Shown here piece by piece: positions 4,918-28,160 of a stretch of DNA of 64,000 nt; positions within the stretch are counted from its first letter, which is position 1, and each line of letters opens with the position of its first letter. The stretch spans positions 6,418,634 through 6,482,633 of the forward strand of contig JARFYF010000068.1 of NCBI GenBank assembly GCA_030265395.1, in the 5' to 3' direction. Source of the DNA: Rhina ancylostomus. Lineage: Eukaryota. A program made the translations under genes and the position numbers. The notes under the pieces are model-generated. The model was not told the origin of the DNA and did not search any database. It saw only the letters and a list, made by a program, of their open reading frames with translations.

Positions 4918-4944
4918 CTTCATTCTTCAAACTAAGTAGTTCAG
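4918..4944 (-). CDS. Microexon 38 (27 nt): AELLSLKNE
   Basis: catgctttttttacacag|CTGAACTACTTAGTTTGAAGAATGAAG|gtaaaa. Confidence 0.9.
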
Positions 4945-6561: not shown

Positions 6562-6581
6562 CAGCGCCTCCTAGAGGGCGA
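6562..6581. promoter_or_regulatory. Candidate CTCF-binding site
   Basis: CAGCGCCTCCTAGAGGGCGA resembles the CTCF core GCGCCCCCTAGTGG in both orientations. Confidence 0.45.
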
Positions 6582-6928
6582 TCTCGTAATTTTAATTCAG
6601 CGATTCATCATTTGTCTTTGTTCTCGCAACCTACTCTCTCTCAGAGTTTCCCATCATATTCCCACTAATCCTTTTTGTTTAGAGTAGTAATTAAGGCGAA
6701 TGTTAGCCAATTATCTTAACATCGTAGGTCTCAAAGTGAAAGTGGTAACTCCGCATATATAGCATTTTAGGACAGGATCAAAGCAAGGCTCTTGGAATTG
6801 CGAGGTAGCAGCATTTACAACCGCACCTCTGTCGATCTGTATAAAGTAAGTGCATAATAAGACATGATGTGAGTATAAGATTAGAATTTGATTTTGGTAG
6901 AAGAGATAACAGGCATTATAAAAGTTAC

Positions 6929-6955
6929 CTGTCTTGGCTTCACGTATCAATGCTT
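6929..6955 (-). CDS. Microexon 36 (27 nt): EALIREAKT
   Basis: gtgttttttaattaatcatgcag|AAGCATTGATACGTGAAGCCAAGACAG|gtaact; paralog of exon 12. Confidence 0.88.
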
Positions 6956-7045
6956 CTGCATGATTAATTAAAAAACACAAAATCAATGTCAATTTTTAAA
7001 AATATACTGCATATATGCGCGTCTAGTTTAGAGGGTCCAGCACTT

Positions 7046-7095
7046 CATATATATACATATATATATATATAGATATATATGGATAGATAGATATA
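7046..7095. repeat. (TA)n/(GATA)n microsatellite
   Basis: Seen directly. Confidence 0.9.
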
Positions 7096-7749
7096 CAAGC
7101 ATATATTGATTTCGTTTTGCACTTTGAATCGAACTTTGTTTCCCAATTATTGTTCAGGTGTTCAGTCTGAGTTCACACTCGACATATTGGGTTTAATTAG
7201 TGCAGATAAGAATACTCTGAGTGAGATGGTTTTGGATTGTATCCAAAAGTCAATCAATATCCAATCATACAACAAAAATTGCACAAAGGGCAATAATTGA
7301 TGGTCAACAAATGAATAGCTACAATGCAGTTCTGATCATTATCAATTACAAATCCTTACTGTACTTCTCACAATCCTCTTACCGACTATATGGTGGACGT
7401 CTAGTTACTTTGGAAACAGAAATTTAATTGCGATCCTTTGGAAATGGGAATGTACTGGAGTACTTTTAGAAAGGAATTAGAAATAAAAGTAATTCCCAAC
7501 TAGAAATGTGAGGGTAATGGATGGATAAAACTATACGTTTAATTTATATGGTGTTCAAGAGATATGTCACCTAATTTCAAGCACCACAAGGAACTAATTA
7601 AATGGAGGAAATACTTATTTATTTGCATTGTTTATCAGATGATTTTCAAAGACACTTTTCACAAATTGGTGAAATTGCTTTGATTATATTTGTTTGCTCT
7701 GCATCAACGAATCGTAGCAATTAGTTGATTTTGATCTTTGTATTCTCTT

Positions 7750-9150
7750 TAGCAATGAGGGAGGTGCCAGAAGACAGCAGAATAGCAATGTTGTTCCTTT
7801 GTTAAAGACTGGCGACATGGGCTATCCATGAAATTATGGACGGTGAGCTTTACAGCAGTGATTGGGAATTTACTGGCGAAGACTCCTAGGGACAAGATTT
7901 GCTCGAATTTGGAAACGCATGTCTTTGTGTGGGGGAGGTCCTGTCTCAAAAATTGGACTGAGTTGTTTTGAAGAGATGACGAAGATGATTGACGAGGGTA
8001 GGCCAGGGGCTACTATACACATGGACTTTAGCATGGCATTTGACAAACCCCTCATGGTGGACTGGTCCAGAACATTGTCAGATGGAATTCACCGTCAGAC
8101 GGTAAGTTGGACACAAAATTAGTTTCGCCAAAGACAAAAGCTATTAGTGGTGGGCATATGTTTTTATGACTGAATTTCTGTGACCAATGGTGTTCCACAA
8201 GGATCTGGACTGCTCCTCTGCTGTTTGTAATATGAATACGAATAATTTGGACGACAATGTAGGTGGTCTGATGAGTAAGTTTGCAGACGATATGAAAATT
8301 GGTGGATTGCATAGTGTGGAAGATTTTCAAAGGATAGAGCAGGATACAGTTCAGTTGGAAATCTTGGTGAAGAAATGCAGAAGTTTAATCCGGAGAACGG
8401 TGCGATGGTTCATTTTGGGAGGTCAAATGCAAGAGGAAAGTGTACAGGAAATGGCAGAACCCTTAGGAGCATTGATTATACAGAGCCAGTTTGGGATACA
8501 GGACTTTAGCTCTCTGAATGTGGCAATAGAAGTGGATAGAGCGGTAAGGATTGCCTGCTGCACGCTTTCTGTCATCGGTCAGGCCATTCAGCATAAAAGT
8601 GGGCAGGCGCATTCAATGTAAAATTTGGCAAATCACATTGTAGCTGTCTAAAACTTTGGTCAGGCCACATTTAGAGTATTTATACAGTTCTTGTCGCACA
8701 CCAGAGGAAGAATGTGGAGAGAGGGCAGAGGATATTGCTTGGAGTGTGTTAGCTCGAAGGAGAGCTTGGACAAACTTGAATTGTTTTCTCTGCAGCGCTG
8801 AAGCGACTTGATAGAAGTATATAAAATTATCGAGGAAGGTGGATAGCAAGAGTCTTTTCCCCAGGGTGGAAATATCAAATACTAGAAAGCGAAGGTTTAA
8901 TGTGAGAAAGGGCAAGTTTAATGGAGATGTGGGAGGCAGGTTTTTACGGATGCAGTGGATGTGTCTGGGGCGCACAGCTGCAGATGAGGTGCTGGAAGCA
9001 GACATGGTAGCATTTTGACAGACATATGAACAGGCAGAGAGTTGACGGATACAGACCACGTGCAGACATGGGATTATTTAGACTGGCATCATTGTCGGCG
9101 CGGGCACAGTGGGCCGAATAGCCTGTTCTTCTGTTGTACTCTTCCATGTT
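7750..9150 (+). mobile_element. 5'-truncated, frameshifted CR1 LINE (RT domain to 3' UTR)
   Basis: Fragments FEEMTKMIDEGR...MDFSMAFDK and SKFADDMKIGG are CR1 reverse-transcriptase motifs; 3' end GGGCCGAATAGCCTGTT. Confidence 0.9.
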
Positions 9151-10389
9151 ATGATATCACTCCAAATTTCCAGCTTTTCAATATGAACAGGATATAATAT
9201 TTTTATTAATGGGACAATGCATTGACGTCTGGCTGCATAGCATTATAGAAATTTCCAGACCAACATTTCAAGACAAGTTATAACGCAGAATGCCTTTCGA
9301 ACGTTCCTGATGGCATCATGTGTAAAATTCTTCGATCTAGTTAGATCCTTAACCAAAATGTTTCTGGTGCTATATCCTTTACCCAGAATAAATACTGAAC
9401 ACAAAATGTTTGGAATACATATGGAAACCTTCTGAACACATCGTGTTCTAGTTGTGTTATTAATTTATTGCCCACTCATTACACATTGCCAACCTGCTAC
9501 TCGGTATTATAGCGCCATTATTTGGATCTATACAATTTGCAACATACTATCACATTAAGCATGAGCAATACAATATAGGACTTTCCGAATAAATTCGATG
9601 TATCATATGCATCGGAAAATATTTTACATTACCGGCGCTTCCTGAAAGACATTTTAACTGATTCAGCACGTCACGAAAAATCAATGAAATTATAGCTGGG
9701 GCTGTCATTCATTCCATTGATTTATTCCACAGGCCATACGCTAAATTCACTGGTCGGAATTGCTGGTTCCTTTCTTATTTCACCTGGACGGAGTGTTTGG
9801 CTCCGTAATTTTAAGCTTGATTAGACCCAGAAATTGATATACATGTCAGATAGATACTCGAGTTTGTTTATGGAAGAACCATTTTAGACTAGATGTAGAG
9901 GTCACGATGATAGTTTCTTGATTGTTATTGAAAATAGTAGTTTTATTATTCCAGGTCGCTTTACAGTTACTTGAATATGCATTCTCACAACGCCCTGGTG
10001 GTATTTAAACAATAAGTAAGGGATCTGGAACACACATTGACAATTTCGTTTCCAGATCGCCAATTTTTAATACTAGAAGAATCAATAAAATAAACATACA
10101 AATAAGGTAACTTTGAAGTAAGAGCTGACTTGGATGGGACCTCATTATACAAAAGAGAGGTGTGATAAAATGAAATATCCTGGTCCGAAATCAAATGATA
10201 AGCTTTTTTATATTTATTTCCAAGCATGTTATATTACTTAAAGTTAAAAAAAATCTGTACTTTGATCTAATGTCCCTGCTTACTCACCGTCATCTTTTGT
10301 ATGCGAGTCAAGTTCTACAAATCATGATTAATAAAGCAATATTAATACTATTAAACTCTTGCCACCATTGCTCCGAATGTTTCTCTACA

Positions 10390-10691
10390 TAGGTTTTCTA
10401 TGTTTCTATACATTGGTTTAAGGTGCTGGGGAGTAAATATTGGGAGAAGAGGAGATGTCAGGGGTACATCTTTTACTCAGAGAGTGGTGAGTGTGTGGAA
10501 TGGGCTGCCGGAAACGGTGGTGGAGGCGGATACGATAAGGTCGTTCAAGAGACTGTTAGATTGGTACATGGAGCTGAATGAAATAGAGCGTTATGTGTAA
10601 GCCTAGTAATTTCTAGGTTAGGGACATGTTCGGCACAGATTTGTGGGCCGGAGGGCCTGAATTGAGCTGTAGGTTTTCTATGTTTCTATGT
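10390..10691 (+). mobile_element. HER1-type LINE 3' end flanked by a perfect 20-bp direct repeat
   Basis: Encodes FTQRVVSVWNGLPE...FKRLLDWYM; TAGGTTTTCTATGTTTCTAT at 10390-10409 and 10670-10689. Confidence 0.88.
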
Positions 10692-10770
10692 AATTAGCTA
10701 AACGCGGAAATGTACGTTGTACTAAGATAACAGCAGAGAAAAACGAAGCCGTTATCATGAATGACATTAC

Positions 10771-10797
10771 CCTTCTCCTTCTGCTTCAGCTTTCGCT
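10771..10797 (-). CDS. Microexon 35 (27 nt): ERKLKQKEK
   Basis: attgtttttgcttaccag|AGCGAAAGCTGAAGCAGAAGGAGAAGG|gtaatg. Confidence 0.88.
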
Positions 10798-12183
10798 CTG
10801 GTAAGCAAAAACAATTGCAGTATTGTGATTATTTTACCAATGATGAAATTATTATTTGTGTTAGAAACAAGTCGCTGAATTCTACACCAACGTCTGTTTC
10901 CCTGCGTTGATCTTGTATTAACTGGGCTATCTAGATCCGAAATACTTTCTATATGTACTGCGTGTTCCAATACATGCCACTTCCACTGAAGACAGACATG
11001 AAGTGCTGGATGTTTAAATCGCGTTATTATCCCTTGGTAGTAACTTTTTCAACAAAAAAATATGAAAACAAACGAAATGAGGGCAGTCTTTGTAAAGGAG
11101 GACAGGTCTCTGGTCCTTCCACTTGCATGAAAGGATGGAACCTTTTCGGAGATCCGCTCAGAATACTTAATTTGATTTATTTTTCTAATATCCGGCGAGT
11201 AATGTTTAAAGTACGATTCATGAGGATGAACTTCAGCACTCCTATTTCAGTTCATTACTTGCGAGATAACAAAAACATATCCGTCGCCTATTTTTAATAT
11301 CATGGCTTGGGATTTTTCTCACCGCTCTTTGTATTGAGATGCTACGAATAAAATGATTCTTGTCAGTTTGGATATATACATATTTTTAAAGGCGGTATGT
11401 TTGTATTTTGAAATGATGTCTGTACTGTTGATGCAGAGAGCTTGAGGGGGATATGGAGTTGCTTATCAATTGCAAACTGAGTGGAATCGTATGTCTGGGG
11501 ATAGAGCAACGTCCAATATTAAACATCATTAAAGGGAACGTAAAGGAATAAAATACCGAAATTTTAAGAGCTGATTGACATAGTAACGTTTTAAAGTTAC
11601 GCTGCATGAGCAAAAGTTCAGCAGTCCATCTTTGAATGGACCATATTTGCTTTGGTCGGTTAAAGTATGTTGTCTGATGTAATATAGTGGAAATATTATG
11701 CCTTTGCCCGCATACATTGTTTGCCTTAATGACTGTTAGAATATCATTGGCAATTGGCCATTTAATCTACCTGGAGCAGAGACAAAATAAAACAGACTGG
11801 AAGGATTCTAACGAAAGCGCAATTTTTCACGTTGATGGATGACAGTGAATATATTGTAAGGATCTGCACAAATTTTATTAGCAGCAATTGTGTCGCACAA
11901 TGAATATGTGTTAAAGCATATTGCTGTTATATATGCTGATCTGTGCTTTGGCAGGATATCAACTACTTTCATTGAATTTTACTTTCCCTAAGGTTTGTGC
12001 AACTTATTGTACAATTTTTGACACATTTTAATAAGAAAGGATTACATTAACTTTTCAGCATAAGAACATGCCATGAAACAAATTACACGCATTCTTTAGC
12101 ATTTCTTGAGCCTAACATTCTAGTTGTGCACCAATGTGTGCACCACATTGCACCAGAGAGTTTTTGCTCATCTCTTTCCTTAC

Positions 12184-12219
12184 CACATTCCTGGAGTTGG
12201 CTTGTTAGGTTTTCTACCT
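12184..12219 (-). CDS. Microexon 34 (36 nt): EVENLTSQLQEC
   Basis: gctgatttctgtttgcag|AGGTAGAAAACCTAACAAGCCAACTCCAGGAATGTG|gtaagg. Confidence 0.9.
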
Positions 12220-13829
12220 CTGCAAACAGAAATCAGCAGCAACGAAATATTTTTTCATGTGCGTTACTATCTCAGATTTTTGCTTTTATGAACATGAGAT
12301 GTTTATGAGTGAAACCATCCATTGTTATTTTAAGAGAGTATGAAGATTTTTGATCATTTTATGTGTTCCATGCATTGAACATGCACTTAGCGCATTTCTC
12401 CTGGTACATATTGGAGAAAGCGAAGGAGAATTAAAAATACATATGCAGACTAACTGTATCCCACAATGTATTTGCACGTGGTATGTGTTCGGAATGCTTT
12501 TTCGTATAATAAATGAAAAAAATGAACATCTCATCAGACAGGTTTAAAGCAGACAGCCAGGGTGTGGATGCTACTCCACAAGATGAACTACTACAATTTC
12601 ATCGGGCCACGAAATAGAAAAAAAATGGCGATTGAACGTGCAGCATGTTAAACTTTGCTGTTATTATGAATTAATTTTGTCCAGTGGTAATAGTTTCTTT
12701 TTTTCGCTTTGGAGTGCACGGAGATAACAGGCTACTTCTTTAACAGGCCGGTTGGATTAAATTTTTTTTGTGGCTATGCTATTGTTATGGATATCGCATT
12801 ACAATCGGACTACAACACAACAAATGGAAGAGAGCAAATGAAAATAAGGTATTTATAAAACAAAGTGAACACGTCAGACATTCTATTTACCGGTTAATAA
12901 TTTGACAATGTACTTCTCAATGCATTAATTATCTTAAGCATACATAAAGCAGGAAATAAAGAAAACATATTTTTGCACGTTCAACAACTTGTCGTGGCTT
13001 AACGGAGGAGAAACCAAAGGCTATGCTTAACAAAAACAAAGCTTCATTCGACTCTCCACTTTCAGCACTGGGAGGAACCGACAGCACGAATACATCGCCA
13101 ATATTTTATCCTGCCGGCGATTATTTACGTTTACATGTGCTGCATTTAGATATTCCACAATGTGTAAACCTATAACAGTTATTTATTCTGAAGTATACAA
13201 GAATTAAAATAAGTTATCACCTGATATCTTTGCCTTGAGTTTCAACACTGCACCAGAGAGAATTGCATCTTAATGATAGCAGTGCAATGCTGCTTTTAAA
13301 ACGAGCGACAAATATGACAAATAGCACTGGGTAGTCAATTCAAGTTGCAACCCGAGTTAACATTGTTTTGAAAGCATTCAGGGATAGTCACATAGTTGAA
13401 GGCAAAGTATATTATTAAGCTACCATTTGTAGAGATCGAGGCAGGTGTGAAAGAGAAGTGTGTGATATTCTTTCTCGGCACAGCTTGGGTTTTCTCTGCA
13501 GTTCTGATCACCACATTAGAAGACAATGGACGATTACACTCTAAACTGTACAGAAGACATTGCCAACACTGAAAAGAAAATCCAGAAGGTAAGTTTGCAT
13601 TGATAGAGATTGCTTTCTCTGGACGATGGGAAGCCGAAGGGAGCGATAATTTGTCGATATAATGTGATGCTGAATATAGAGTATTCAGAATGACATGATC
13701 ATAAACAGATGGCCGGATATTTCATGTAATGGCTAAACCGTTTTGAGAGGAGATGATCTTTTTTTAACACTCAACAGGCTAGCATATACTCAATGAATAA
13801 TAGGGCCCAGTGGAGGGAAAAGAGGCTGT

Positions 13830-14480
13830 GGTATGGATACCCAAGGATGCATTAAGGTCGAAGCACAAATATATAAATAGGAATATCTGCCTCAGTATCC
13901 CAGGCATAGAATTTACGAGTAGGGAAGCTGTGGTATGACCATATAAAATATGCCACAGCTGGAATTCCATCGTGCAGTTCTGGTCACCACGAAATAGGAA
14001 GAATGTGATGGCATTGGACGAGCGGTAGAGGAGATTCACCAGGATGATATCAGGAATGCAGCTTTTCAGCGACGAGGTGAACCTAAATTGGCTGAATATC
14101 CTTTCATTGGAGCAAAGAAAGCTGATGTGGAAGTTGATTGGGGGGTTCAACAGTATGAAGGGCATACATAGGTCTGAGAGCAAGAACATTTTCCCAAAGC
14201 AGAGGCGGGAAGGGAGTGTAAGGTAAGGCGAAGAAATTTAGGAGGGGATTTGGAGAATGATGTTTTCCAGCCAGAGGGTGGTTGAACCGAAGCAGACGGC
14301 CCGAGGAGGTGACGGATGCATGTATTCTTACAACATATAAAAGGCTTTTATATGAAAAGTTGAAACACCATGTTTTAGAAAGCTTCGGTTTGAGTGCTGG
14401 AACATAGGATTAGAATAGATATGGCCAATGGCCGGCATAGAGGCAGTGTTCCTATTTACAACCTTTATGACTCTATGATG
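13830..14480 (+). mobile_element. Degenerate CR1 LINE 3' portion
   Basis: GTGCAGTTCTGGTCACCA...AGGAGATTCACCAGGATG; tail TATGACTCTATGA. Confidence 0.8.
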
Positions 14481-14655
14481 CTGTGTAGAAAATTAAAAAA
14501 AGCAGGAAATTGCTGCTTCCGATCTAATATGTTTGTTTGAAGTCTACACAACGAGCAGCAAATCAGATGCAAACGCCTCCATTATTCGTCATAACTGCGT
14601 ATTCGTCATAGTCTAACATTTCTGTTTAATTCCATAAGTTCTTTGTATTACTCAC

Positions 14656-14667
14656 CACAGCTGGCAT
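14656..14667 (-). CDS. Microexon 33 (12 nt): DASC
   Basis: ctgttgtattttgttcatcag|ATGCCAGCTGTG|gtgagt. Confidence 0.82.
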
Positions 14668-14796
14668 CTGATGAACAAAATACAACAGTTCATCAGTGGT
14701 ATAGCATATAATTTAGCACTGCACTGAATTGATCTGAGTGAAAGAAGGACATAACATATTGTCGAAGATGAACTGAATCGAAACTGTCGGATTTAC

Positions 14797-14823
14797 CTGC
14801 TTCCCTCTCACGTAGCTTATCCT
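14797..14823 (-). CDS. Microexon 32 (27 nt): EDKLREREA
   Basis: cttatatgtttcttcag|AGGATAAGCTACGTGAGAGGGAAGCAG|gtaaat. Confidence 0.9.
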
Positions 14824-17110
14824 CTGAAGAAACATATAAGTGAGAAAACATGTTTGGTTCTGAGATATCTTTCACAAATTAATTTTTCGTTTTCCGGTGC
14901 CTGGGTAACATTCTGGCAAGGCTGCTTGCAAATCCTGTATTGGAAGCATTTTGGAGTCATAACAAGCGATGGGGAATTCGGGGGACACCTGTTCACTGTC
15001 CATTCCAAAACATTAAACAGTAAAGTATCGAGACCCATAGCTCTTGAATTGACGAGCTTCAGGCGGACTTGCTTTTTCGTATGATCATCATGTGGGTGCT
15101 GCCGATAATGTTGCATATTTTGCCAAGCTGCACGGAAAGGCAAGATCTAATGGATGTGGACAGGCTGATAATTAGAATTCATTGTTTAGTTATTATTTAT
15201 TTGTGGAGAACTGCAGATTGCAAAACCAGTTGTGACCTTTCCCAAGTTGCTTTGTTCTGTTTCTTTATCGCTTCTTTCATTTTATGAAAATATTGAGAAT
15301 TACCAAGGGTTTGCCCATTTTGCTCATTATCCCTCGTCTAAATTTGATAGATTCGTCGAATTGTTGGTTTGATTATCTTATTTTATTCAGGCTCTAAGCG
15401 GCTGCGGTAGCAAGGATTTACACTTATAGTATTTTGTGCTGGCATACAACTGCGTCCATACAACAACAACACTGAAAGAATGAATTCCAAGGAATCAAAG
15501 CAACAGTGGCGCATATTTCCTCCATACCACACGCACATCAAGCTCACCACTATTTTGTGACTGCGCAGGCTCAAACGACCTCAAAGGTTCCCTGCCGCAG
15601 GTCACTGACAGAGTGGTTCTTGTGATAGTGCGATGAATCATACGGGTCTTCCAACAACCGCGTTAGTGGACTCTTGTTGTTGAAGGATTTTTTAATGATC
15701 TCTGAAATTTGATGATGATATGCTAATTTTGAAAATAAAACTAACAAGTAACTAAAATAAATAAAGCTAACTTTAAAAAGACAAACATACTTGAAGCACA
15801 TTTAACCGATGCCAATTAATTGAAATATATGTGGTGAAAAAAGATCAAAAACAAATAAGAAAGGCATTCATTTTTTAAGAAGTTAACGGTCCACGACCCC
15901 ATTTAAATGAACAGAGCCAAATAGATAGCCAAACAGATATTCGGCAAACTTGGCTGACATAATTTGAGGTGCCTCGATATGAAGTGCATCCAGCTTCTCG
16001 ATAAACACGATGAGGAACTGCTGCTGGGTCATGCAGGAACTGGGGGATAGAGCGAGATTTGAAGTGCACCAGTATTTTACTGCTATGTGCTCCAAGTCTC
16101 TGTTCTGCAGTGCATACTCGCATAAATCATTGACCCGTAAGTCACAGCCAGTTGAAGGTTGTTTTCCTGACACAAAACAGCAAAAAGAACCCCCAGTTTT
16201 GAACATTGTAGTTAACCCTCACGTTAGTAAGTAATTAAGGCGAGGAATCGAACAAGGGATAATAAAACAAATCTTATGTAGTTCTTGGACTATAATGGAT
16301 ATTGGAAGTGTGATATTTCTGCCTCCAGTTTAAATATGTTGTCTTCAAAGTACAACATATTTATCTCTGCGCTTAACAACGTAACTTCTGAAAATCTTTA
16401 CACAGTCCTCCCTGAGTTTTTTGTAACGAAATGATATTTAGATGTTGGTCATGGGTTGTCGTCGTCGTTGGAAGTACAGTCTTGCTCACCCCTGATTGCC
16501 ACTTAATCGAGGAAAAAGTTATATGACTACCACGCTTTCTTCCTCAGCAGGCAACAGCTCTAACTTTCCTGATAAATACATTTTTAAAACATTTTATACA
16601 GCCAACACATCCTTCCGTTTTGCGATGAAGCAGAAATATGTAATGTTTACCATTTTATGCAGCTGTTCCATGACGTTCCTACTCTTAAATTCTACACCTT
16701 TAGCAGCAAGAGCAAATGATCACAGATTTATTTAAAACCACCTTATTTACTGGTATCATCCGGTGAATATGTATTCCAGCTTGGCTGCATTCCTTTTCAT
16801 TTCTCAATTCTACACGATTTTTAAAAATGTTATTCCCTCTACTCCATGACACCAAATGCATTATTCCATTCTTCTTCGAATTCAAGTTATTTTGTGCTTT
16901 TCTATGTTCCTGCAGCCTCCTTTTTTTTGTCAGTTTTTAACCACACCAGTAATTGTTCACCTACAATTGCCATGACTACTGTGTTTATCTGCCAACAGGA
17001 TTATATAGGTGTACTGGCAAGCTTTGTTAATAGAAATTGCGCCAAAGACGGAAACGCAGTTATTATAATGCATCCACATAATATATAAAAAACTTCATTG
17101 ATTTCATTAC

Positions 17111-17146
17111 CTAAATCTTGAAGTGCTTTTTTCAGTTTTTTGGCTT
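17111..17146 (-). CDS. Microexon 31 (36 nt): EAKKLKKALQDL
   Basis: attatttcaatttctttag|AAGCCAAAAAACTGAAAAAAGCACTTCAAGATTTAG|gtaatg. Confidence 0.9.
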
Positions 17147-17739
17147 CTAAAGAAATTGAAATAATCGCTTGAGCTACAAAGCTTCTAATTGTACACAGAC
17201 ATTTTTAGATATATGACCTATTTTGGATCAAATTTAACCGGCATTGTATTCAGGATTTCAAAAACTGCATTTTGTGCACCACCATTAGATGTCCATATTG
17301 CCTGCAGAAATCGCTTCCTCACAATACTTAAGTAGTGGATTTATTTCATTTACAATTGTCGTATTACAGCCCTTTTTCAAAGTAAACGTTACAAGAGAAA
17401 AGCCCCTGTTTTGAATGGGGTGCAATGGGGTAAACCCGTATGTTTTCCCGAAAATTAAATGTATTTTGCAATGATCGTTATTCATTCACACCCCATCGGA
17501 AATCAATAACGAGCCTAAGAAAAGAAGGGAACATGACTTCTGTACTGAAATCTAGTTTCTGACAGTTTAAGAGCAACATGATTAAATTTTACTAACAACG
17601 ATGTCATACATTTCAGGGTGTGAAATATCGTACCTGTCCCATTTCAACCGAAAACATTGTGCATTGATTATTTTAAAAATTCTGTTCAGAATGACTAAAG
17701 CAATTTTAGGTATAGTAGCGTCCTCTAACATATATTTAC

Positions 17740-17766
17740 CTTCATCCTTTTTGGTCATCTCTCCTT
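17740..17766 (-). CDS. Microexon 30 (27 nt): EGEMTKKDE
   Basis: gaaattattttacag|AAGGAGAGATGACCAAAAAGGATGAAG|gtaaat. Confidence 0.88.
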
Positions 17767-18277
17767 CTGTAAAATAATTTCATGTAATTCTTGAAGGAAC
17801 AGTGGCAACTGTACAAAATTCATTTCCTAAATCATTCCGGGTACCGTAATGTACAACTTATGATATTAACTACACAATTTAGTGTCGCAAAGAACCATGA
17901 CGACCTTGCACTAATGTAATGGCGGGGTCGGTTTGAGCAGCCAGACGCTCTACTCCTGCTCCTTTTTCCTTGAGCACATGCAATATTTTGAGCACAAAAA
18001 TGGTACATAAAATCTATGTCTGCAAGTAATAACCTAAAGAAACAGCCAAAGTATTTAATGGAAATGTCATACGTCAATATGAGCAATGGGAAATAAATGT
18101 TAAAAATAAATTGAAAAGCAACAGCAATATTGTGACCAATGCAGCACATAATCGACTGGACTTTCAGCGAAAATTATAAATAAAAAATTATGAGCCGGGT
18201 GAGGCTACTTGGCCCTCAAGATTGCTCTACTACTTAATTTGCTCACAACTGATCTGATTATAACCCGGACTGCATTT

Positions 18278-18700
18278 AGAATCAGAATCAGGTTCATTGT
18301 CACTGATATAGGTCGTGAGATTTGTTGTTTTGCAGCATAACACGTCGAATGTCAGTGCAAGACATAAAAATTGCCATAAATTGCAAAAATAAATAAATCG
18401 TGCAAAAGAGGAATAACCAGGTAGTGTTCATGGGTTCATCACCTTTCAGAAATCTGATGGCGGAGGTGAAGACGATGTTCCTATCACGCTGAGTGTGGAT
18501 CGTCAGGCTCCTGTCCCTTCTCCCCCATGATAGTAATGAGAAGAGGGCATATCCCAGATGGTGAGGGTCCTTAATGATGGATGTCGCCTTCTTGAGGCAC
18601 TGCCTTTTGAAGACGTCGTTGATGGTGGGGACCATTGTGCCCGTGATGGATCTATCTCAGTCGACAACCCTCTGAGAGCCTCCATACCAGACGGCGATGC
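18278..18700 (-). mobile_element. Rex1/Babar-type LINE 3' end, nested in an older CR1 fragment (about 18190-19050)
   Basis: Encodes CLKKATSIIKDPHHLGYALFSLL...SAIRFL; (ATTCTG)n tail at 18278-18290. Confidence 0.8.
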
Positions 18701-19062
18701 AATGTGCAGGGTCGAACGATTCCCTTCTGCCCCGATACTATTCAACCCGCACGATTATCAATAATCTCTTTACCGTTGCATAAAAAATGTTCAGAGACTT
18801 TGCTTCCACTGTCCTTCTAGGAAAAGAACATGAAGACTCACGAAGCTCCGAGGGCAGCGTGAGGAACGCCTCATCTCTTCCATAAAAGTGACACCTAATG
18901 GTAATTCTCGTGCAAGAAGAAATATCCTCTTTACACTGAAACTGTCAAGATCCCAAAGAATCATACATGTTTTAATCAAGTGACCCTCACTTTTTTGAAC
19001 ACAAGTAGATACAACATTTCCTCATGAGATATGCTGCGCATTCCAGGTATTAATATGGGTAT

Positions 19063-19113
19063 TAATCTCATGTCAAAGATAGAAGGTGTAATCTCATGTC
19101 AAAGATAGAAGGT
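19063..19113. repeat. Exact 25-bp tandem duplication
   Basis: TAATCTCATGTCAAAGATAGAAGGT twice, separated by one G. Confidence 0.9.
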
Positions 19114-19750
19114 CCACTTAAATAGATGTGAAGAGTTTCAGCAATAGTCCAGACAACATCCATATCAAAGCTGTTCGTTTTAACAGCACCCTACTGATAC
19201 AGGCTACTCAACAGTGCAATTCGGATGAAGTGTACATAAACTCATGAAACGACTTGCTGCGTAGCCCCAACTCTTTCTCGTAAGCACATTACAATCTATT
19301 GTAATATCTGTATAAGTCATACATCATCCTGTTTTGCAGACATAGTGTTGTACTTTTATTGTCGCTGGATCAAAACTTCGGTGTCTCCACAGTAAAAAAG
19401 AGAGGCCGGGATACTTTCCTCATTTAGGTTCCAGAAATGTAAAAGCGTGAATCACTACCATTTTCTCAATGAAAATCAAGTAAGGACAATAAATCGAGGC
19501 CTTCCACGATGGTCCACTTTTTGTCAATGCTTTTGGTATTTGCCCTTTAAAAGTTTATTTTAAAATGAAGTCATGTTTATGATATTTTTTTCAAAGAAAT
19601 TATACAGTCTATCAATAAACATAACCAATTCGATGTCTCCATCTTACATTGACCTTCACCTTTGTTTCGTTATCAACATTTACGATCTACCCATGAGCAG
19701 AGAAAATGCAAAATCATGAATGAGTTATCTTCCACTATTAGCGATTTTAC

Positions 19751-19786
19751 CTGCATCACTCAGCATCCTTCGTAATTTTTCCAATT
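19751..19786 (-). CDS. Microexon 29 (36 nt): ELEKLRRMLSDA
   Basis: gtttacttgcatttcag|AATTGGAAAAATTACGAAGGATGCTGAGTGATGCAG|gtaaaa; paralog of exon 9. Confidence 0.9.
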
Positions 19787-20295
19787 CTGAAATGCAAGTA
19801 AACTCTCTGCTTTAATGACATTGAGTGAAGGAGAGTTTGGTTCGAAAAATAAACACATATATCATCTTGATTCAGGACTGTTGCAAGGGGCGATAGAATC
19901 TGGTGCCTATAATGGTCGAAACTTTGCTATTTTAAAGAGGACTTGTTTCCTGTAAGTAGCCATGGGGGATACCTTCAAAATAATATTTATAACTTAGTTG
20001 GAAATAGTTTGAAATTTCTAAATGTATTGCATTATATAATGTTGCCCAGTAAACCACATAGGGTGAATTATGGTTTTTCACAAATCCTCGTGTATATGAA
20101 TAGCATTGTGCTGCATACAGCCATTAAGGACAAGGCGCAGGAAATTCTCTTGAACCACATTAAATTAATTATAATTTACCCGTTCAAATTGTTAAGATTA
20201 ATTGTTTAACAAATATAGATAACAGAAGAATATGCTATAGAAGGAAATACGCTTATTATCTGCAAGCATCGACTGATCAACATTAATTTACTTAC

Positions 20296-20307
20296 CTTCT
20301 TCTTTGC
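20296..20307 (-). CDS. Microexon 28 (12 nt): GKEE
   Basis: ctgcacttttgtaattcag|GCAAAGAAGAAG|gtaagt (consensus donor). Confidence 0.8.
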
Positions 20308-20666
20308 CTGAATTACAAAAGTGCAGTTCAAAGTGAATGAAAATCGTATTGGAAGGTTGTACAGAATTTATTGTGTTTGAAATGTCAGTACAAGAAATTG
20401 ACTTACTCCTTCTTTTAGTTTAATCAATCTTAAAGCTTTAAATTAATTTCTGTATTTCAGACGTTTCGAGTTTTGAAAATTTGATAACAGGCAATTCTCA
20501 GGGGTGTATAGAACGTTATAAATGCCTTCCTTTGTTCCAGGGCGAAGGCTTGATTAGTTCACATACTACAAAATAATGTCTTATGTTACCACAGGTAATA
20601 ACTACAACTATTTTAATATCTTGCCACAATGCCTGTTTCAAACTCCTGGTCAGTAACTTATTTTAC

Positions 20667-20693
20667 CTGTATCTTGCCGACGGAGTAGTTCCT
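20667..20693 (-). CDS. Microexon 27 (27 nt): EELLRRQDT
   Basis: gttgcctcttaaatctcag|AGGAACTACTCCGTCGGCAAGATACAG|gtaaaa. Confidence 0.88.
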
Positions 20694-21219
20694 CTGAGAT
20701 TTAAGAGGCAACAGATTGCGTGTTATATTTTCAATAATATCGTTGTGTATTTTGCAATAGTAATTGCTCAAGTGCTTAATAATGGGGATTTTAATTCGTC
20801 TGTTGCCTCAGTTATTCAGTGCAAAATACTGAATCCATGACTTCTTTGTATATTCATGGTCTGCATCTGATTTTGCAACGTAGTTTGTTTATGCAGTTAC
20901 TATCGGATTAGAAGTAAGCCGCATATTGTCATATTTAATGGCATTACTACATATTTTCCTCAAAACCATCCTTATAACTGTAAAACAAATGTTATGAATG
21001 AGAATGTACGCAAAAATAAGTAGAACTTGGAAGTAAACGTAAAAATCATGCAATAACCGTAATTTGATAATCAAAGAACAATGTGTGTATTTGCGATAAG
21101 GCGAAAAGACAACTAATTGAGTAAGCACAATAATATCGCATTCTCAAATACCTCGAAAAATTTGCAACCGTTTGCTTTTCAGAGATTACACAAAACGGGG
21201 ACGTTTCACAGAAAAAAAA

Positions 21220-21430
21220 ACCGTAGATGCCGAAATTATAAAATTAAACCGAAACTACTGGAAATACTCAGTGCGCCAGGCCGGATCCGTGGGAAGACAA
21301 CCAGAGCTAACATTTCAGGTTAAAGATCTCTCGTCACAACTTGCCAAAACTGTTTTGACAAAGGATCTTCGACCTGAAACGTTTATATTGCCGCAGATGC
21401 GGCCTGACTGCGGAGTACTTTCAGCAGGCT
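21220..21430. repeat. Interspersed repeat with related copies at about 3890-4070 and 25800-26280
   Basis: Shared motifs TAGATGC...TGGAAATACTCAG...GGATCTTCGACCTGAAACG...GATGCGGCCTGAC; family not identified with certainty. Confidence 0.5.
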
Positions 21431-22273
21431 CTGTTACGGGAAATTTCATTGGTGATATCTTTCAAAAAAGCAGACCAAGAAGAAGCCATCTGAATGGCAT
21501 CTTTGAAAATTCTTGTGGTAGGATTTGAACAGAGTGCATGGCCACCGACAATTTATTTCTTCTCTCATTTATCATTTTTATTTCTTTTTTCTCCAAATTC
21601 ATAGCTGTCCTCCTTCCATATCTCCATAGAGATACCCTGGCATTCCCACGCTGCCCCGATGTGTTGGACTGTTTGCGTTGCCTAAAATATTTCTTTCATG
21701 TTGGGTTATTTTATTTGCACGTCAAAATGTTTCTAAAGTATATCTGTGGTATATTTAATCAAAGCTACCAATACGTGAACATTTTGCATAAGTATGCCTC
21801 GGCAAAAATCAAATAATTACAGACCTGACCACCAATATAATGTGAGTTCCAGGTTTTAAGAGTCACTTACAACAATATTGCAACAGGGTGCCTTCACTCC
21901 CGGATAAAATGCAATAAATTTGCTGATTATTGTCGTTCTTAGACACCGTTCTCCTAAACTTTAATCAGTGATAGACCCGCTGAATTACAACCATGAAGAT
22001 TTAATTCTTATAATTCACATGGAGACTGCGATAGTTTTCCCTTAAGTGCTTGCTCCTCTTTGCACACACAATAATAGATATTGCTGTGTTAAAGCTACAC
22101 CGTGTTTCATAGTTTGGTGACCAGAAATATATAAAAATGAAAACTGACGTTTTAAAATTTAAAAGTCGAAAACNNNNNNNNNNNNNNNNNNNNNNNNNNN
22201 NNNNNNNNNNNNNNNNNNNNNNNNNNNNNNNNNNNNNNNNNNNNNNNNNNNNNNNNNNNNNNNNNNNNNNNNN

Positions 22274-22386
22274 CTGATGGGGCTCAGGTGTGTATTGTTA
22301 TCCAATCAGTCCAGCATGGAATCCATGTGCTGGACAACAAGGCATTAATGTATCCAAATTGAGGGCCAGAACTTAGAACCATGACA
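22274..22386. mobile_element. Right end of a Gypsy-type LTR (same family as 62520-63001); left part in gap
   Basis: CCAGCATGGAATCCATGTGCTGGACAACAAGGCATT...AGAACCATGACA. Confidence 0.75.
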
Positions 22387-23258
22387 TCATCAAGTGAGAC
22401 AGCTTGAGACAGATCAAGAGGGAACTAGAGCTAACGTCATAGATGGAAGGAAAGTTAACATTTCCATCTTTTTTTTTGTCTTCTTCTTTCGAAATGACTT
22501 TTGTACAGTATCTTCAAATTGCACGTCAGGACGCCCCGGAAACACCTGCAAAGATACTTCTTGCTTTATTCTTGCCCCAGCTCTGAAAATTTAGTTGAAT
22601 AGCTAATCAATCCATTAAAGAATAGAATATGCCTTCACATAAATAACTTAAACACTACAATGCATTGGAGACGAATCTGCTTACCAACATTCAGTCGAAT
22701 AGCTTCGATTTTCTTACGTTCTGGGAAGCATATTTCTCATTACCTATTCGCTCAATGATAGCATTTAAAGATGCAATCGAGAGTTTGTTTGCCCGAGGAC
22801 ATAAACGTATATCTGTTGAGTCTTTTAAGGCCAGATATACACTTGAAATTAAGATTGAACTATAACTCAATAGCAACTGTTCCTGCAGCAGTGCAACTTT
22901 CAAAATCTTGTTGACTGCCCTGCCGTCGTCTGTTCGCGAGGTGCGTCAGACCACAAACGGTCAGGATAAGATGAATGCCTCTTTTATAATTTACTGATCC
23001 ACCACTAATTTGATTCTCGCGAAAGCTGCCCTTTCACGCAATTCCATCTCCCCGATATCTTCATGATAATTCCTTGAGTATTTTGCACAGTTTGCGTGTT
23101 CGTTCATTTTATCCTTGCTAACTCAATCCACAATAAAACTGTCGTCTTTAGCTCAAGATTCTACTTCCACATGCGTTCTTCTCCACGGAGAAACTATACA
23201 ATCTAACTGCCGAGACGATAACTCCAAATGAAAGACCAGGAAAACAGAAGTATTTCAC

Positions 23259-23285
23259 CTTCTTGAGTTTCACGTATCTGCTCCT
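23259..23285 (-). CDS. Microexon 26 (27 nt): EEQIRETQE
   Basis: ttcgcttttttcaaacttgcag|AGGAGCAGATACGTGAAACTCAAGAAG|gtgaaa. Confidence 0.87.
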
Positions 23286-23799
23286 CTGCAAGTTTGAAAA
23301 AAGCGAAAGAAAATATATTAACCGCAGCAACGACAGATGTAACTTCGTCGGGTTTTTGCCTTGATTTTTGAAGATTCCCTTCTGCAGCAATTGAATACAA
23401 ATATTCTAATACATTAAGACAACATTCATTACATTGACTATTCATTCCTGTGGTGATCATACCTTCTCCCTTTTCCAATATTTGTTTTTTATTCTGTTTG
23501 CTTGTTAGCTCAAGAGCCTTTTACAATCCATCGTCCATCGTCCGTCAACGTGTTCCTCATGCCCGACAATTCAGTGACAAAGTCGACTTTCATTGCATTA
23601 AGTTACACATGATTCAGTATCTCCATCCTTACAACACTTACAGCCAAAGCCATTCATTTTTTTTTGTGTAAATACTGAATTTGTGTCAGTGAATTCTGTT
23701 GTCTGTTCTTTTGTCCACTTTTAGTTGAGGTGTCGACGTTGCCTGGCAGAGAAATTATTTGCTCCACTTCACTTCTGTTTTTCTTTTAAAAACTATATT

Positions 23800-24022
23800 C
23801 ATACAGCACTGTAACAGGCTCTTCCGGCCCAACGAGCCCGCATAGCTGAATTACACCCGTGTTAAATACCAGCGGTACGTGTTTGGAATGCAGGAGGAAA
23901 CCGGAGCACCCAGAGGAAACTGACGCAGTCACAGGGAAAACGTACAGACTCCTTACAGACGGGAAATTGAACTCCGGTCGCTGGCACTGTAATAGTGTTA
24001 CACTGACCGCTGCGCTACCGTG
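23800..24022 (-). mobile_element. HE1/V-SINE-like tRNA-derived SINE with HER1-type tail
   Basis: V-domain motif GGAGGAAACCGGAGCACCCAGAGGAAAC...GTCACAGGG; tRNA-like head at the right end. Confidence 0.8.
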
Positions 24023-24289
24023 TGTTCCGAAGATATTTCTGAAAATATGTTTTTTCTTTTGTTCTTATGATCACGCTTGCAGTTAGTAGTATAATAAACT
24101 GGAATTATTTCCAGAGTACGCAGTGTTTTTCAGCTCGGTAAACAGAAAAAAAGTAAATTGATTCTGTAAACAATTCATGCAGCAAGTGCAAAAATTTTTT
24201 TTTACAGTGCCATATGAAGCTTATCCAGAGAGGAAATTTACGTTTCTCCTCAGTCTTTAAATTTTGGGCAGTCAATGAATTATGAAGCT

Positions 24290-25110
24290 ATAGACTCAGA
24301 AACTGGCCCTTCAGCCCACGCTGTGAATGCCGCCCATGCAGTCCTGATTTCTTGATCCCATTTACCAGCACTTGGTCGGTAACCTTCTATGTATGAGGGT
24401 TCAAATGCTGGTCTAGATACTTCTCATATGTCGTGAGACTGCTTGCCTCTCAAGCAATGTTTTCCAACTCCACCCGCCCTTTGGGTGGAAAAAATCTCCA
24501 CATATCCCCTCTCAACCTATTACTCATTATCTTACATCAATGCACCCAGGTTACAGACAGCGCTGCTATGGCACAACGATTATTATTGTCGATCCTATTT
24601 ATTCCCCCGCCCCACAAGTTTGTGCACATCTATCTCCCCGCCAAATCTTTCTCTGCTCCAAGAAAAATAATCCCAAACTATTCAATCTCTCCTCAGAACT
24701 GAGGCACTTTATCCCAGGCAACATCCTGGCGAATTTATTCTGCACCCACTCCTGAGAAAACAACTGTACCCAACATTCCAGATGTGGGCTGATTAATGTG
24801 TTACAAATCTGCACCGTAGTTCGCCTGCTCTTGTATTGCATGACACGGTTAATAAAGACGACCTTCTGTAAACCTTCTTTACCACGCTGCTACCTTCAAG
24901 GATATTTCAACTTGTACACCTATATTCCTCTGTTCCTCAAGAATCCCCATTCATTGCGAATATCCTGTCATCATTTGAACTTCCAAAATGCAATACTTAA
25001 TACTTATCAGGGTTACATTCTATTGCCCAACTTACCAGTTGACCAATATCTTCTGTAGCCTACTGTTCTTACCTTCTCTATCCGCAATTCCACCAATTTT
25101 TGAATTTGCA
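24290..25110 (-). mobile_element. Degenerate CR1 LINE 3' portion
   Basis: Encodes PHLECWVQLFS...KFARMLPGIKCLSSEERLNSLGLFFLEQRK. Confidence 0.85.
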
Positions 25111-26343
25111 AATTGTCACTGAGATTATGCATATCTGTAGGCCAGCAATACATATCGCAAATACGAAATGCGAAAAATAATATATCCCTTAAAGTATATT
25201 TTGTGCTTCGAGCTAATGGAAAATGCCGCTAAAAGTAACGTTGAGCACGGTGACTTATTGACAGCATTCCAAGGATGATGTTGAGTCAGTAACATTTATA
25301 TGGAGTTCCCGGAATAATATTATTATCACAAAGCCAACTTACATATTTACAGTTTTCCCTGATCCAGAAGGTATTATTTGCGACAGTAGATGGGGAGAAA
25401 ATAGGATGGGAGAGCTGAAGCTACGGCATTATTTAATGAAATCGGAAGTTGATAGCACTGGCATATAAACGGACTTTATGATGTTTTTCCAACAAAAATC
25501 ATCAGTATGCATATCAATTTATTGAATTATGCGCTCAAATGCTGAAGCTCATTTAATGCTAGATGATAAGAAATGTAGCTTATCTCAATAACTGTTGACA
25601 GTAACCAGCACAACCGCCATTAATGTTGTGCACGAGGAAGCGCCAGACAACAAGGAATGTCGATGTGGGTAAATCAAGAATTCCAGGAGGACGCGCATGT
25701 GGAGGACGTGCAGTGGGCCGCATGACGAGTTTCTGTGCGTTTTTATCTTGTAAGAAATGACTGGAACGCACTGACAGCTACCCGGTGGGTCCGTCACGAT
25801 GAAGAAAGAAACAGACGATGCCAGAGATGGGGAGAGAACCTGGGTTAAGGTTTCTGACCGATAACTTTCTTGAGAACTAGAAAGATTAAGAATTCTAAAC
25901 ATCCTCAGTTGCAGAGCGCTGTGTGTGTGTGTGTGNNNNNNNNNNNNNNNNNNNNNNNNNNNNNNNNNNNNNNNNNNNNNNNNNNNNNNNNNNNNNNNNG
26001 GGAAGGTGGTCGGGAGGGGCGCTGGAGATGGGTTAGAGCGTGACAGGGAGGAGATGAAGGGAAGCAGATGAAGAAAAGCTGAAGTCTTGAACGGGTGTTA
26101 GTGCCCGTTCCCCAGTTCCGATATAACCTAAAGGATGGACGTTTTCTGACGTTTCCTAGTTCTGATGGAAGGTTATTGGCTTGAAAAGTTAACAATCTTC
26201 CTCTCTCCACAAATGGTGAAACTGTTGCGCATTTCTATAATATCTCATTCTTATTTCAGATTTTCAGCATCTGCAACCTTTTTTGTGTTTACGAATTTAA
26301 TGTTTTGAATAGTATCAATTAGTTTTATATATTTTTCATTTAC

Positions 26344-26373
26344 CAGATGTCTTGCATCTGTTAACTAATGTCT
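26344..26373 (-). CDS. Microexon 25 (30 nt): ETLVNRCKTS
   Basis: ttctgtcttaatgtttctgaacgtcag|AGACATTAGTTAACAGATGCAAGACATCTG|gtaaat. Confidence 0.72.
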
Positions 26374-26807
26374 CTGACGTTCAGAAACATTAAGACAGAA
26401 CAAAAAAAAGTCCTCTGGAAACGCTTCATTTGAATGTACTTAAGAATGCAATCCTTAGCTTCCTTAGCTGACGGCATATCTTCATGGACCGATCATGTTA
26501 TTTTGGAAAATGGCGACAGAATTTTACCCGCGGGATATTGGGAATAACGTGATTGGAAACAGTATGGGTGATCTCATACTACGCGAGGCCAACTGGTAAC
26601 ACGGTCGGTTGATAAACCTGGAAGGTCGATGAGCAAGGTATTTGGCATTTACCTAATTTCCTTGTCCAACTCCAAATGTTTGATACTTTCAAACGAGCTA
26701 AACATTGAGGTGAAGCATATGTACGTTTGAATCTTCAACTGACCTGCACTGGTATTTTTAAATATTTCAATCATTGAAACATTGTGACACACGTTTTCAT
26801 AACTCAC

Positions 26808-26834
26808 CATCTTTCTCGGTATGTTTCTGAAGTT
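26808..26834 (-). CDS. Microexon 24 (27 nt): ELQKHTEKD
   Basis: gttcccattttcactctag|AACTTCAGAAACATACCGAGAAAGATG|gtgagt. Confidence 0.88.
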
Positions 26835-26950
26835 CTAGAGTGAAAATGGGAACAAATAATTTTTGGTTAATGTTCAGTTTGCAAAATTTTGAGTTCCTAT
26901 ATCCAAATATGCTTTGAAGCGGTACTTCAACTTGTATTGTTAGTGATTAC

Positions 26951-26977
26951 CTTCTTCTTTGAATTGCAACTCATTCT
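26951..26977 (-). CDS. Microexon 23 (27 nt): QNELQFKEE
   Basis: tttattttgttccaaaag|AGAATGAGTTGCAATTCAAAGAAGAAG|gtaatc. Confidence 0.85.
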
Positions 26978-27979
26978 CTTTTGGAACAAAATAAAAAAAT
27001 CAATAGGTTTTTTTGATCATTTTCCTTAACGATTTGAAAAAAAAACAAGACAAATACTTAGTTGTGCAGGCCACCACAACCCCAGAGTTCATTTCGGTGC
27101 CCCCGAACAAGCTTGAAAAGGCCAACACCAGGAGTGATGCTTGATAATGCATATCAATTGTTCTGCACATTTCCCCCTTTCTCACAAACAGTTTAATCAA
27201 ATCAGAGTTATCTTTTAAATTATTTTTATTTAAAAAAAACTTTTCTACGTAATCAATGACGAGCAGGAAGCCGGTTTATTTCCATCAGGATATCTTACTG
27301 AGCTCATGAGGGGACTGAAGTTCTCGTTGTTGGAAAGCAGTGAGAATACCATGTGGATGTGAGACACATTAAAATCGGCAGCAGAACTAATCTCAAATGT
27401 GTTTCTGCACAGGTAACAAGCTTTTACCACACATGTAAGCCAACTCTGTGATTCTACTAGACACTGACTTATAAGAAGTTCTGGATGAACAAGTCAACTT
27501 GTTTTGCTGATATTCACATAGAAATGTTTCTTCATAGAAATGAAGTTACTGACTTCACAACCTGATTTTTACTTTATAATAGCTAAGATCCCATAATAGT
27601 ACGGAACACTCAGAATCAGAATTATTATCACTACATATGATGTGTAATTCAATTCAACTCGAGTAATTAAATGTGTCATACTACTCTGCCGGTCATCCAG
27701 CAGTTCAGAGGGACGCGTCCACAATCATTCGCCTTTCCAGACTCCTGTTCCTGTGCACTGCAGTGTGGAATTACAGAACATTTGAAGGCCAGAGACGATC
27801 TACTCTGATTTCCTATGNNNNNNNNNNNNNNNNNNNNNNNNNNNNNNNNNNNNNNNNNNNNNNNNNNNNNNNNNNNNNNNNNNNNNNNNNNNNNNNNNNN
27901 NNNNNNNNNNNNNNNNNTTTCCTATGCACTTCCTGGCTCAGACTGAGTTCAAGAGAATCAGTAAGTAAGTGCCTCTTCG

Positions 27980-28160
27980 GTATAGGTATTGGTATTGGTT
28001 TATTATTGTCACTTGTACCGAGGTACAGTGAAAAATGTGCCTTACAAACCGATCGTACAGGTCAATTTATACACAGTGCAGTTACATTGAGACACTACAG
28101 AGTGCATTGATATAGTACAGGTAAAAACAATAACAGTACAGAGTATAATGTATAGTTAGT
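27980..28160 (-). mobile_element. Rex-type LINE or SINE 3' tail
   Basis: (GGTATT)n then GGTTTATTATTGTCACTTGTACCGAGGTACAGTGAAAA: a reverse AATAAA plus short-repeat tail. Confidence 0.6.

Follow-up and report, generated by a model that had tools for sequence, protein, structure and literature searches.

Paired 36- and 27-nt micro-exons form one of the two module types that alternate in a giant chondrichthyan gene family largely missed by annotation

We analysed a stretch of 64,000 nt from the 2.2-Gb genome of Rhina ancylostomus (hereafter the window: contig C68, 6,418,634-6,482,633; positions outside it are given in window coordinates, with + or - beyond the window). Its minus strand carries part of gene B, a long array of phase-1 micro-exons. 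Here a 36-nt exon and the 27-nt exon next to it form one module, which alternates with a second one in a giant chondrichthyan gene family that annotation has largely missed. The array has an open frame, evolves under purifying selection and follows an ordered succession of two exon types, heads and tails; the same modules are spliced in frame in database proteins related to the neighbouring gene and to a paralogous array. On balance, we consider it rather probable that a functional protein-coding gene runs through the window, belonging to a chondrichthyan family of soluble proteins made of a micro-exon-encoded rod and a B30.2 domain, and related to the cytoplasmic half of butyrophilins.

Micro-exons, reading frame and the two-exon module

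The original prediction had singled out four window exons, two consecutive 36+27 pairs. All four are present on the minus strand, with AG..GT borders, phase 1-1 and the translation claimed, and we recover the residues given for positions 2, 9, 16, 23, 30, 37 and 5, 12, 19, 26, 33, 40. The exons of the array are not chance occurrences. Intronic splice signals alone, scored with matrices trained on called exons and hence mildly circular, yielded 118 candidates of 27 nt on the minus strand versus 19 on the plus strand, and 65 versus 13 of 36 nt. Almost all minus-strand candidates are stop-free in the phase-1 frame (116/118 and 60/65), compared with 62 and 63 of 118, and 19 and 31 of 65, in the other two frames. 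When the scan was run without a frame filter, lengths divisible by three numbered 204 on the minus strand, against 35 and 29 in the other classes (36, 31 and 31 on the plus strand). Purifying selection is visible among paralogous exons, whose pN/pS is 0.28-0.40 in frame and 0.83-1.42 in shifted frames (5-26 exon pairs, chosen via DNA identity). Over the whole C68 array 289 exon calls score above 14, compared with 22 on the control strand, and 234 score above 18, compared with 2. The 289 comprise 142 exons of 27 nt, 78 of 36 nt and 4 of 21 nt (5 of 21 nt on the control strand). Two 30-nt calls (+93,485 and +319,267) lie inside a shared repeat and were left out of the register, paralog-pair and module analyses.

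The pairing of the two sizes is real, although the counts first proposed need correction: the window holds 11 exons of 36 nt rather than 10, and the next exon is 27 nt long in 11/11 rather than 9/10 cases (6.4-6.8 expected from exon-order shuffles, P 0.0004-0.0012 at three score cut-offs). Counting a weak candidate of 18 nt at 60678, whose score of 12.7 falls short of the cut-off, would lower this to 10/11. In the whole C68 array, a 36-nt exon is followed by one of 27 nt in 51 of 78 cases (38.3 expected, P 0.0009), by one of 18 nt in 10 and by another of 36 nt in 9 (20.8 expected). The pattern xxx[LMI]xxK[DE], which had been proposed for many 27-nt exons, describes the 51 that come after a 36-nt exon (position 4 is LIVMF in 86% and position 7 is K in 73%) and not all exons of this size.

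The 27-nt exons are of two types, tails (x-x-x-L-x-x-K, starting at heptad position e) and heads (E-L-x-x-L, starting at g). We assigned the heptad register with a simple purpose-written program (penalty 4), standing in for Marcoil/DeepCoil; 27-nt exons start at e in 69/130 cases and at g in 27/130, while the 36-nt exons, with the motif E-[IL]-x-x-L-[KR]-x-x-L, start at g in 56/77. The split codon (GAA or GAG, divided after its first G) places Glu first in 61/78 of the 36-nt and 95/142 of the 27-nt exons, and these residues land on the e and g salt-bridge positions. Heads and tails alternate at 145/191 junctions versus 50% in shuffled arrays (maximum 64% in 10,000 shuffles), a figure that is partly circular since the classifier was partly trained on exon order. 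Gene B contains 42 modules of 36+27 (21 aa), 16 of 27+27 and 11 of 36+18 (18 aa), and 3 of 27+18 (15 aa). The usual order in the window is 21-18-21-18. The run of two successive pairs highlighted at the outset is therefore an exception, since most 21-aa modules of the window alternate with 18-aa ones.

As a 21-aa unit of three heptads, the 36+27 pair stands in part. Register is kept and inferred breaks are fewer inside pairs (14 per 867 residues) than elsewhere (55 per 1463), but 12/51 pairs contain one such break (9-20 depending on the penalty), which speaks against a strict paired unit, and the pair is not the only module. The claim of an unbroken core was overstated. Each of the 51 pairs has six a/d positions; hydrophobic residues prevail at four of them (76-90% LIVMF), a fifth is small (31%) and the remaining one is Lys. 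The order is I/L, L, L, small, L, K, with Lys at the last site in 37/51, which leaves the coil with two weak core sites out of six. Nor is there an unbroken 7/2 register. The mean period is 3.50-3.525 with peaks at lags 11, 18 and 39, and inferred breaks total 57-98 over 2,330 aa, part of them owing to missed exons. Hydrophobic autocorrelation peaks at 7, 11, 18, 21, 39 and 60 (z 2.8-4.7 versus exon-order shuffles), which fits a grammar of 21- and 18-aa modules. An 18-aa module (7+11) would lose three heptad positions, producing a stutter about every 39 residues when the two alternate. Acidic g comes with basic e' in 40/78 of the 36-nt exons versus 13 like-charged cases, and Glu at g with Lys/Arg at e' suggests parallel chains. 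Gly, Pro and Ser make up 13-14% of the 24- and 18-nt exons versus 5-7%.

Joint skipping of the two exons, also expected from the pair, is not what the database isoforms of family relatives indicate. Their six internal differences measure 9, 6, 9, 9, 9 and 7 aa (short-read models, weak evidence), so none is of 21 aa; one is a 6-aa piece directly after a 12-aa exon. Two other regions of the array deserve mention. Between +408,000 and +354,000, modules of 36+27 and 36+18 alternate (39 aa in sum), and several heads have Cys as their second a residue. At +248,582 to +253,987 there is a recent tandem duplication (~90% identity including introns) with one 36-nt and one 27-nt exon. These exons were copied singly, hence pairs are not always moved by duplication.

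In the mechanism that we propose, each module would consist of a head exon (36 or 27 nt, g-start, E-[IL]-x-x-L) and a tail exon (27 nt, e-start, x-x-x-L-x-x-K, or 18 nt), with 36+27 giving three heptads and 27+27 or 36+18 giving the 7+11 stutter. Alternating modules would make a two-stranded coiled coil with a 39-residue period, slightly unwound and probably parallel, a rod interrupted by polar 24-nt linker exons and ~320 nm long if fully extended. Its length may evolve through tandem duplication of whole modules. The most fragile step is functional: the rod might dimerise as a spacer or scaffold for C-terminal B30.2 domains acting as putative ligand-binding heads. In gene B the B30.2 exon may lie in an assembly gap, or may have been lost, in which case the product would be a BG-tail-like rod or a partner chain. 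Heptads and stutters would be set by exon lengths, through a two-exon grammar of 21 or 18 residues.

Gene B, its relatives and the MHC neighbourhood

In the 714 kb around the window, the micro-exon array extends from +503,794 to -45,339. A profile search of this region gave one B30.2 match, an exon at +453,183, so the array comprises at least two genes; reading the whole 555 kb as one gene was dropped once this exon appeared. It belongs to gene A, which lies directly upstream of gene B and is shorter (+504,246 to about +452,600, 33 exon calls plus B30.2). The space between the two genes is 27 kb, including a 2.85-kb assembly gap. Gene B is a ~470-kb minus-strand array (+426k to -45k) with 226-247 exon calls depending on the cut-off and about 2,175 aa; net charge is -93 over 2,330 aa. 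A candidate stop exon at -51,215 is followed after 317 nt by a poly(A) signal. There are 114 gaps in gene B (41 kb of N), and at its 3' end there are unsized gaps. Exons are spaced by a median of 1.6 kb; a 23-kb interval around a 9.6-kb gap lacks confident exons and no other interval exceeds 7.4 kb.

Gene A ties the array to known proteins. An electric-ray RefSeq protein matches 18/33 of its exon calls in strict order, which validates the exon calling. The gene-A relative (P0166; five electric-ray isoforms) aligns to micro-exons from its first residue, starting at the Met of a 25-nt exon without a hydrophobic segment. An upstream phase-0 ATG exon, which we had considered for gene A, is thus unnecessary. 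A small uncharacterized model of sawfish lies on the same strand at about the position of gene A. A search with the tail-exon motif gave 35 matches genome-wide, 14 on C68 and 9 on C53 (20 in the reversed control), and revealed on C53 a second cluster with the same exon classes. Isolated matches on C50 (two), C56, C22 and C64 are not arrays (5/5 checked). The C53 array runs from 36,714,172 down to 36,203,727, over about 510 kb; ~255 kb of it were read and gave 88 exon calls. Its 5' end was not found; it ends with a 27-nt exon followed by a PRY-SPRY exon. A last exon of 27 nt before B30.2 is a trait of BTN and TRIM genes. The best database match of C53 is an electric-ray RefSeq protein (P0001) whose SPRY is 79% identical. 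The N-terminus of P0001 is built from the same modules of 9 and 12 aa, which follow one another in frame and in the order of the array; many array exons are absent from it. Pfam found only SPRY in this protein, with neither RING nor B-box.

Other relatives occur in skate, catshark, basking shark, a carpet shark and Callorhinchus, and no Ig domain, membrane anchor or RING was seen in the family relatives examined. In the catshark protein P0169, the N-terminus consists of near-identical 9-aa repeats, suggesting recent amplification of a 27-nt exon. The sawfish protein P0002 (1,936 aa) was set aside as an ordinary fused TRIM model. The best solved B30.2 match is BTN3 (E 7e-27), ahead of TRIM21 (4e-21). 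A single branch separates nine family B30.2 domains (eight named chondrichthyan, one unnamed) from 45 others, with SH-aLRT 99 in a quick tree of 54 of 118 domains; the family members had been chosen by motif beforehand. These nine form a clade on a long separate branch. When the rod of the gene-A relative was compared with proteins of 652-2000 aa, 0/2,370 candidates scored. No paper on these genes, nor on six locus ids, was listed by the full-text searches, which cover few subscription journals.

The array sits between nurim (atlas 0.91) and RBM4-like genes. Nurim and three RBM4-like genes (L007:3228 to L009:9019; C68:6,067,836, 6,934,428 and 6,973,591) match the MHC chromosome of sawfish in order and strands, which places gene B in an elasmobranch MHC. 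In the tables seen of PMC10751288 and its supplement, the nurim interval is gene-less for 961 kb in sawfish and for 1.83 Mb in white shark, and in catshark spans 3.9 Mb with seven unnamed models, all large and on the same strand; in reedfish dhx16 comes within 7 kb after nurim. Synteny suggests that the sawfish, white shark and catshark intervals hold orthologs of gene B. If so, a megabase 'gene desert' of the chondrichthyan MHC would be filled with a conserved gene that annotation misses or fragments. C68 also carries 55/84 of the SPRY matches of the genome.

Known systems and competing explanations

Two known systems had been offered for comparison, the stalk of CD23 and the tails of BG. The CD23/FCER2 stalk, built from 63-nt exons, belongs to an extracellular type II lectin. 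It shares with our array a 21-aa unit of three heptads, but the array has no excess of 63-nt exons (candidates at background in the window, 2 minus and 2 plus), its relatives end in B30.2, and no lectin-like ORF was seen at the 3' end when ORFs were inspected by eye, with no profile search. Tropomyosin has periods of ~39.5 and 19.7 residues, an unbroken heptad and large exons. The array would likewise encode a long rod with charge periods of ~39 and ~19.5 residues and weak core sites, but its heptad is interrupted and its exons are small.

The BG tail was the right lead. As described in the sections consulted of PMC5938342, chicken BG genes are MHC-linked, and the long coiled coil of their cytoplasmic part is encoded by phase-1 micro-exons whose first codon is split; the number of exons differs, and the true heptad crosses exon borders with the first codon at e. 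These exons are of 21 nt (few of 18 or 24), number 27-37 per gene and stand behind an IgV domain and a membrane segment, with no B30.2 in that description (PMC5938342). Gene B resembles BG in its MHC linkage, its symmetrical phase-1 micro-exons encoding heptads and its split first codon. It differs in having 27-, 36-, 24- and 18-nt exons in head+tail modules, ~230 of them, and no tail of 21-nt exons. Unlike in BG and butyrophilins, no N-terminal IgV and transmembrane segment was seen, and the gene-A relative begins in the rod. Butyrophilins (BTN3A, BTN2A, ERMAP) are described as having very short 'heptad' exons before the B30.2 exon (PMC6790196, in part). Gene A and C53 also have short heptad exons and then B30.2, and their closest solved match is BTN3; yet no IgV-IgC-TM was seen, the tail counts tens to hundreds of exons and the B30.2 domains are on their own branch. 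TRIM-B30.2 proteins (A33, TRIM39, TRIM58 and TRIM69 are the RefSeq names of relatives) are similar in being soluble, with a coiled coil and then PRY-SPRY, and different in their RING and B-box, of which Pfam found neither in P0001, and in a coiled coil not built of micro-exons. On exon size, ectodomain and RING/B-box, the array falls outside BG, BTN and TRIM. Its product would function as a vastly expanded BG tail or butyrophilin cytoplasmic half, and not as a CD23 stalk (PMC5938342, PMC8813856, PMC6790196 and PMC12841164, each in part). It would add a soluble branch, with members in chimaera, sharks and rays, to the butyrophilin/BG/TRIM-B30.2 story.

Several observations weigh against a rod-plus-B30.2 gene in the window. 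The 509 kb of assembled gene-B DNA have no B30.2 by profile, and tblastn gave only E>=0.35. Neither a start codon nor a transcript of gene B itself was found. For the candidate last exon no RNA data set was listed, which says nothing about expression. Database relatives have 221-460 aa and lack many exons of the genomic arrays, so full-length splicing is hypothetical. Finally, every 21 residues one d position is Lys and another is small, hence a weak core. Gene B may instead be a tandem cluster of at least two shorter genes of the same type, each with its B30.2 exon in an assembly gap, which we regard as possible. Gene A was itself read as part of one gene until its B30.2 surfaced, both assembled B30.2 exons of the family contain gaps, and gene B has 114 gaps and an exon-poor interval of 23 kb. 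The seven same-strand catshark models (PMC10751288, in the part seen), database B30.2 subtypes without a close copy in the assembly, and a carpet-shark B30.2 protein in which modules similar to window exons 42043, 35241 and 30023 follow one another in that order (modest scores) point the same way. On the other hand, the regular spacing elsewhere, the lack of a second 25-nt start-type exon scoring like that of gene A and of any B30.2 fragment adjoining a gap argue for a single gene, and a split at the large gap would still leave the window in a gene of about 230 kb. At the other extreme, gene B would be one transcript of ~230-250 micro-exons encoding a soluble rod of ~2,200 aa and ~320 nm, with orthologs filling the 0.96-, 1.83- and 3.9-Mb nurim intervals of sawfish, white shark and catshark, the 21+18 grammar matching the rod to a 39-residue filament repeat and splicing setting its length. 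We hold this combined conjecture to be doubtful; if true, few vertebrate genes would be longer or have more exons than gene B and these orthologs, which annotation would have missed.

The rod could instead be cytoskeletal, akin to tropomyosin or to the BG-derived 'zipper protein', its 39-residue period matching the actin subunit repeat, along filaments or, more speculatively, in a structural fibre such as that of sperm. The lag-39 autocorrelation (z 4.0), the charge power at period 19.5 (z 4.2) and the recurrence of similar exons mostly at 78, 39, 21 and 132 aa (3-5 cases each) would fit, as would the partly consulted reports of tropomyosin being displaced by a soluble BG tail (PMC5938342), which also has an effect on actin-myosin interactions (PMC8813856). 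Yet the 19.5/39 signal is a consequence of alternating 21 and 18 and loses its regularity across large parts of gene B, and the net charge is modest (-93 over 2,330 aa); we find it unlikely. A continuous heptad stalk of 63-nt units split into 36+27, CD23-like and always co-skipped, accounts for the pairing in the window and for the rarity of breaks inside pairs, but 30/72 gene-B modules are not of 21 aa, no isoform difference removes a pair and family members end in B30.2 rather than a lectin domain, which makes it improbable. Marginally more improbable is a membrane-bound butyrophilin or BG whose upstream Ig and transmembrane exons were missed. The BTN3-like B30.2, the MHC location, the gap between genes A and B, and a SLAM-like Ig gene upstream on the same strand in sawfish (PMC10751288, in the part seen) favour it. 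However, the gene-A relative starts directly in the 25-nt exon without a hydrophobic segment, neither an Ig-like nor a membrane exon was noticed in the candidates upstream of gene B (V-set: best 150 of 846; gaps present), and RBM4-like genes intervene. Least credible of all is a decaying array that is no longer expressed. It is unannotated in two of three elasmobranch tables and has no assembled B30.2, but its candidates remain open in frame and pN/pS is far below 1.

Window exons and minor observations

Table 1. Exons of gene B in the window.
Feature	Position	Strand	Basis
Gene B, middle-to-3' part	1..64000	-	phase-1 micro-exon array, about +426,000 to -45,300 (window coordinates, C68)
Predicted pair 1, 36-nt head exon, g-start, 12 aa	19751..19786	-	exon scan + register
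Predicted pair 1, 27-nt tail exon, e-start, 9 aa	17740..17766	-	exon scan + register
Predicted pair 2, 36-nt head exon	17111..17146	-	exon scan + register
Predicted pair 2, 27-nt tail exon	14797..14823	-	exon scan + register
27-nt exon	62163..62189	-	exon scan
36-nt head exon	61460..61495	-	exon scan
27-nt tail exon	56384..56410	-	exon scan, head/tail classification
36-nt head exon	54693..54728	-	exon scan
27-nt tail exon	53224..53250	-	exon scan, head/tail classification
27-nt tail exon	46817..46843	-	exon scan, head/tail classification
36-nt head exon	46495..46530	-	exon scan
27-nt tail exon	45000..45026	-	exon scan, head/tail classification
27-nt exon	42017..42043	-	head-like via register and similarity to 26834 and 10314; classifier said tail
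27-nt tail exon	41347..41373	-	exon scan, head/tail classification
36-nt head exon	40509..40544	-	exon scan
27-nt tail exon	38796..38822	-	exon scan, head/tail classification
27-nt head exon	37313..37339	-	exon scan, head/tail classification
24-nt polar linker-type exon	35218..35241	-	exon scan, composition
36-nt head exon	33587..33622	-	exon scan
27-nt tail exon	33397..33423	-	exon scan, head/tail classification
27-nt head exon	32260..32286	-	exon scan, head/tail classification
27-nt tail exon, GC donor	31551..31577	-	exon scan
36-nt head exon	29988..30023	-	exon scan
27-nt tail exon	26951..26977	-	exon scan, head/tail classification
27-nt head exon	26808..26834	-	exon scan, head/tail classification
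27-nt tail exon	23259..23285	-	exon scan, head/tail classification
36-nt head exon	22685..22720	-	exon scan
27-nt tail exon	20667..20693	-	exon scan, head/tail classification
27-nt exon, weak acceptor (score 15.3)	13221..13247	-	exon scan
36-nt head exon	12184..12219	-	exon scan
27-nt tail exon	10771..10797	-	exon scan, head/tail classification
27-nt head exon	10288..10314	-	exon scan, head/tail classification
27-nt tail exon	6929..6955	-	exon scan, head/tail classification
36-nt head exon	5130..5165	-	exon scan
27-nt tail exon	4918..4944	-	exon scan, head/tail classification
27-nt head exon	4095..4121	-	exon scan, head/tail classification
24-nt polar linker-type exon	3696..3719	-	exon scan
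27-nt exon	1196..1222	-	exon scan

Further candidates of the window have fair splice scores, namely two of 12 nt (20307-20296 and 14667-14656), one of 9 nt (5824-5816), one of 21 nt (38388-38368) and a weak one of 27 nt (57032-57006); the register would shift if they were used. When contigs from two DNA runs were placed on 6278-22173, those of a relative ~4% diverged crossed several window exons. Very high-copy interspersed repeats occur in introns at ~10,440-10,690 and ~18,280-18,680 (binned contig depth >50,000).

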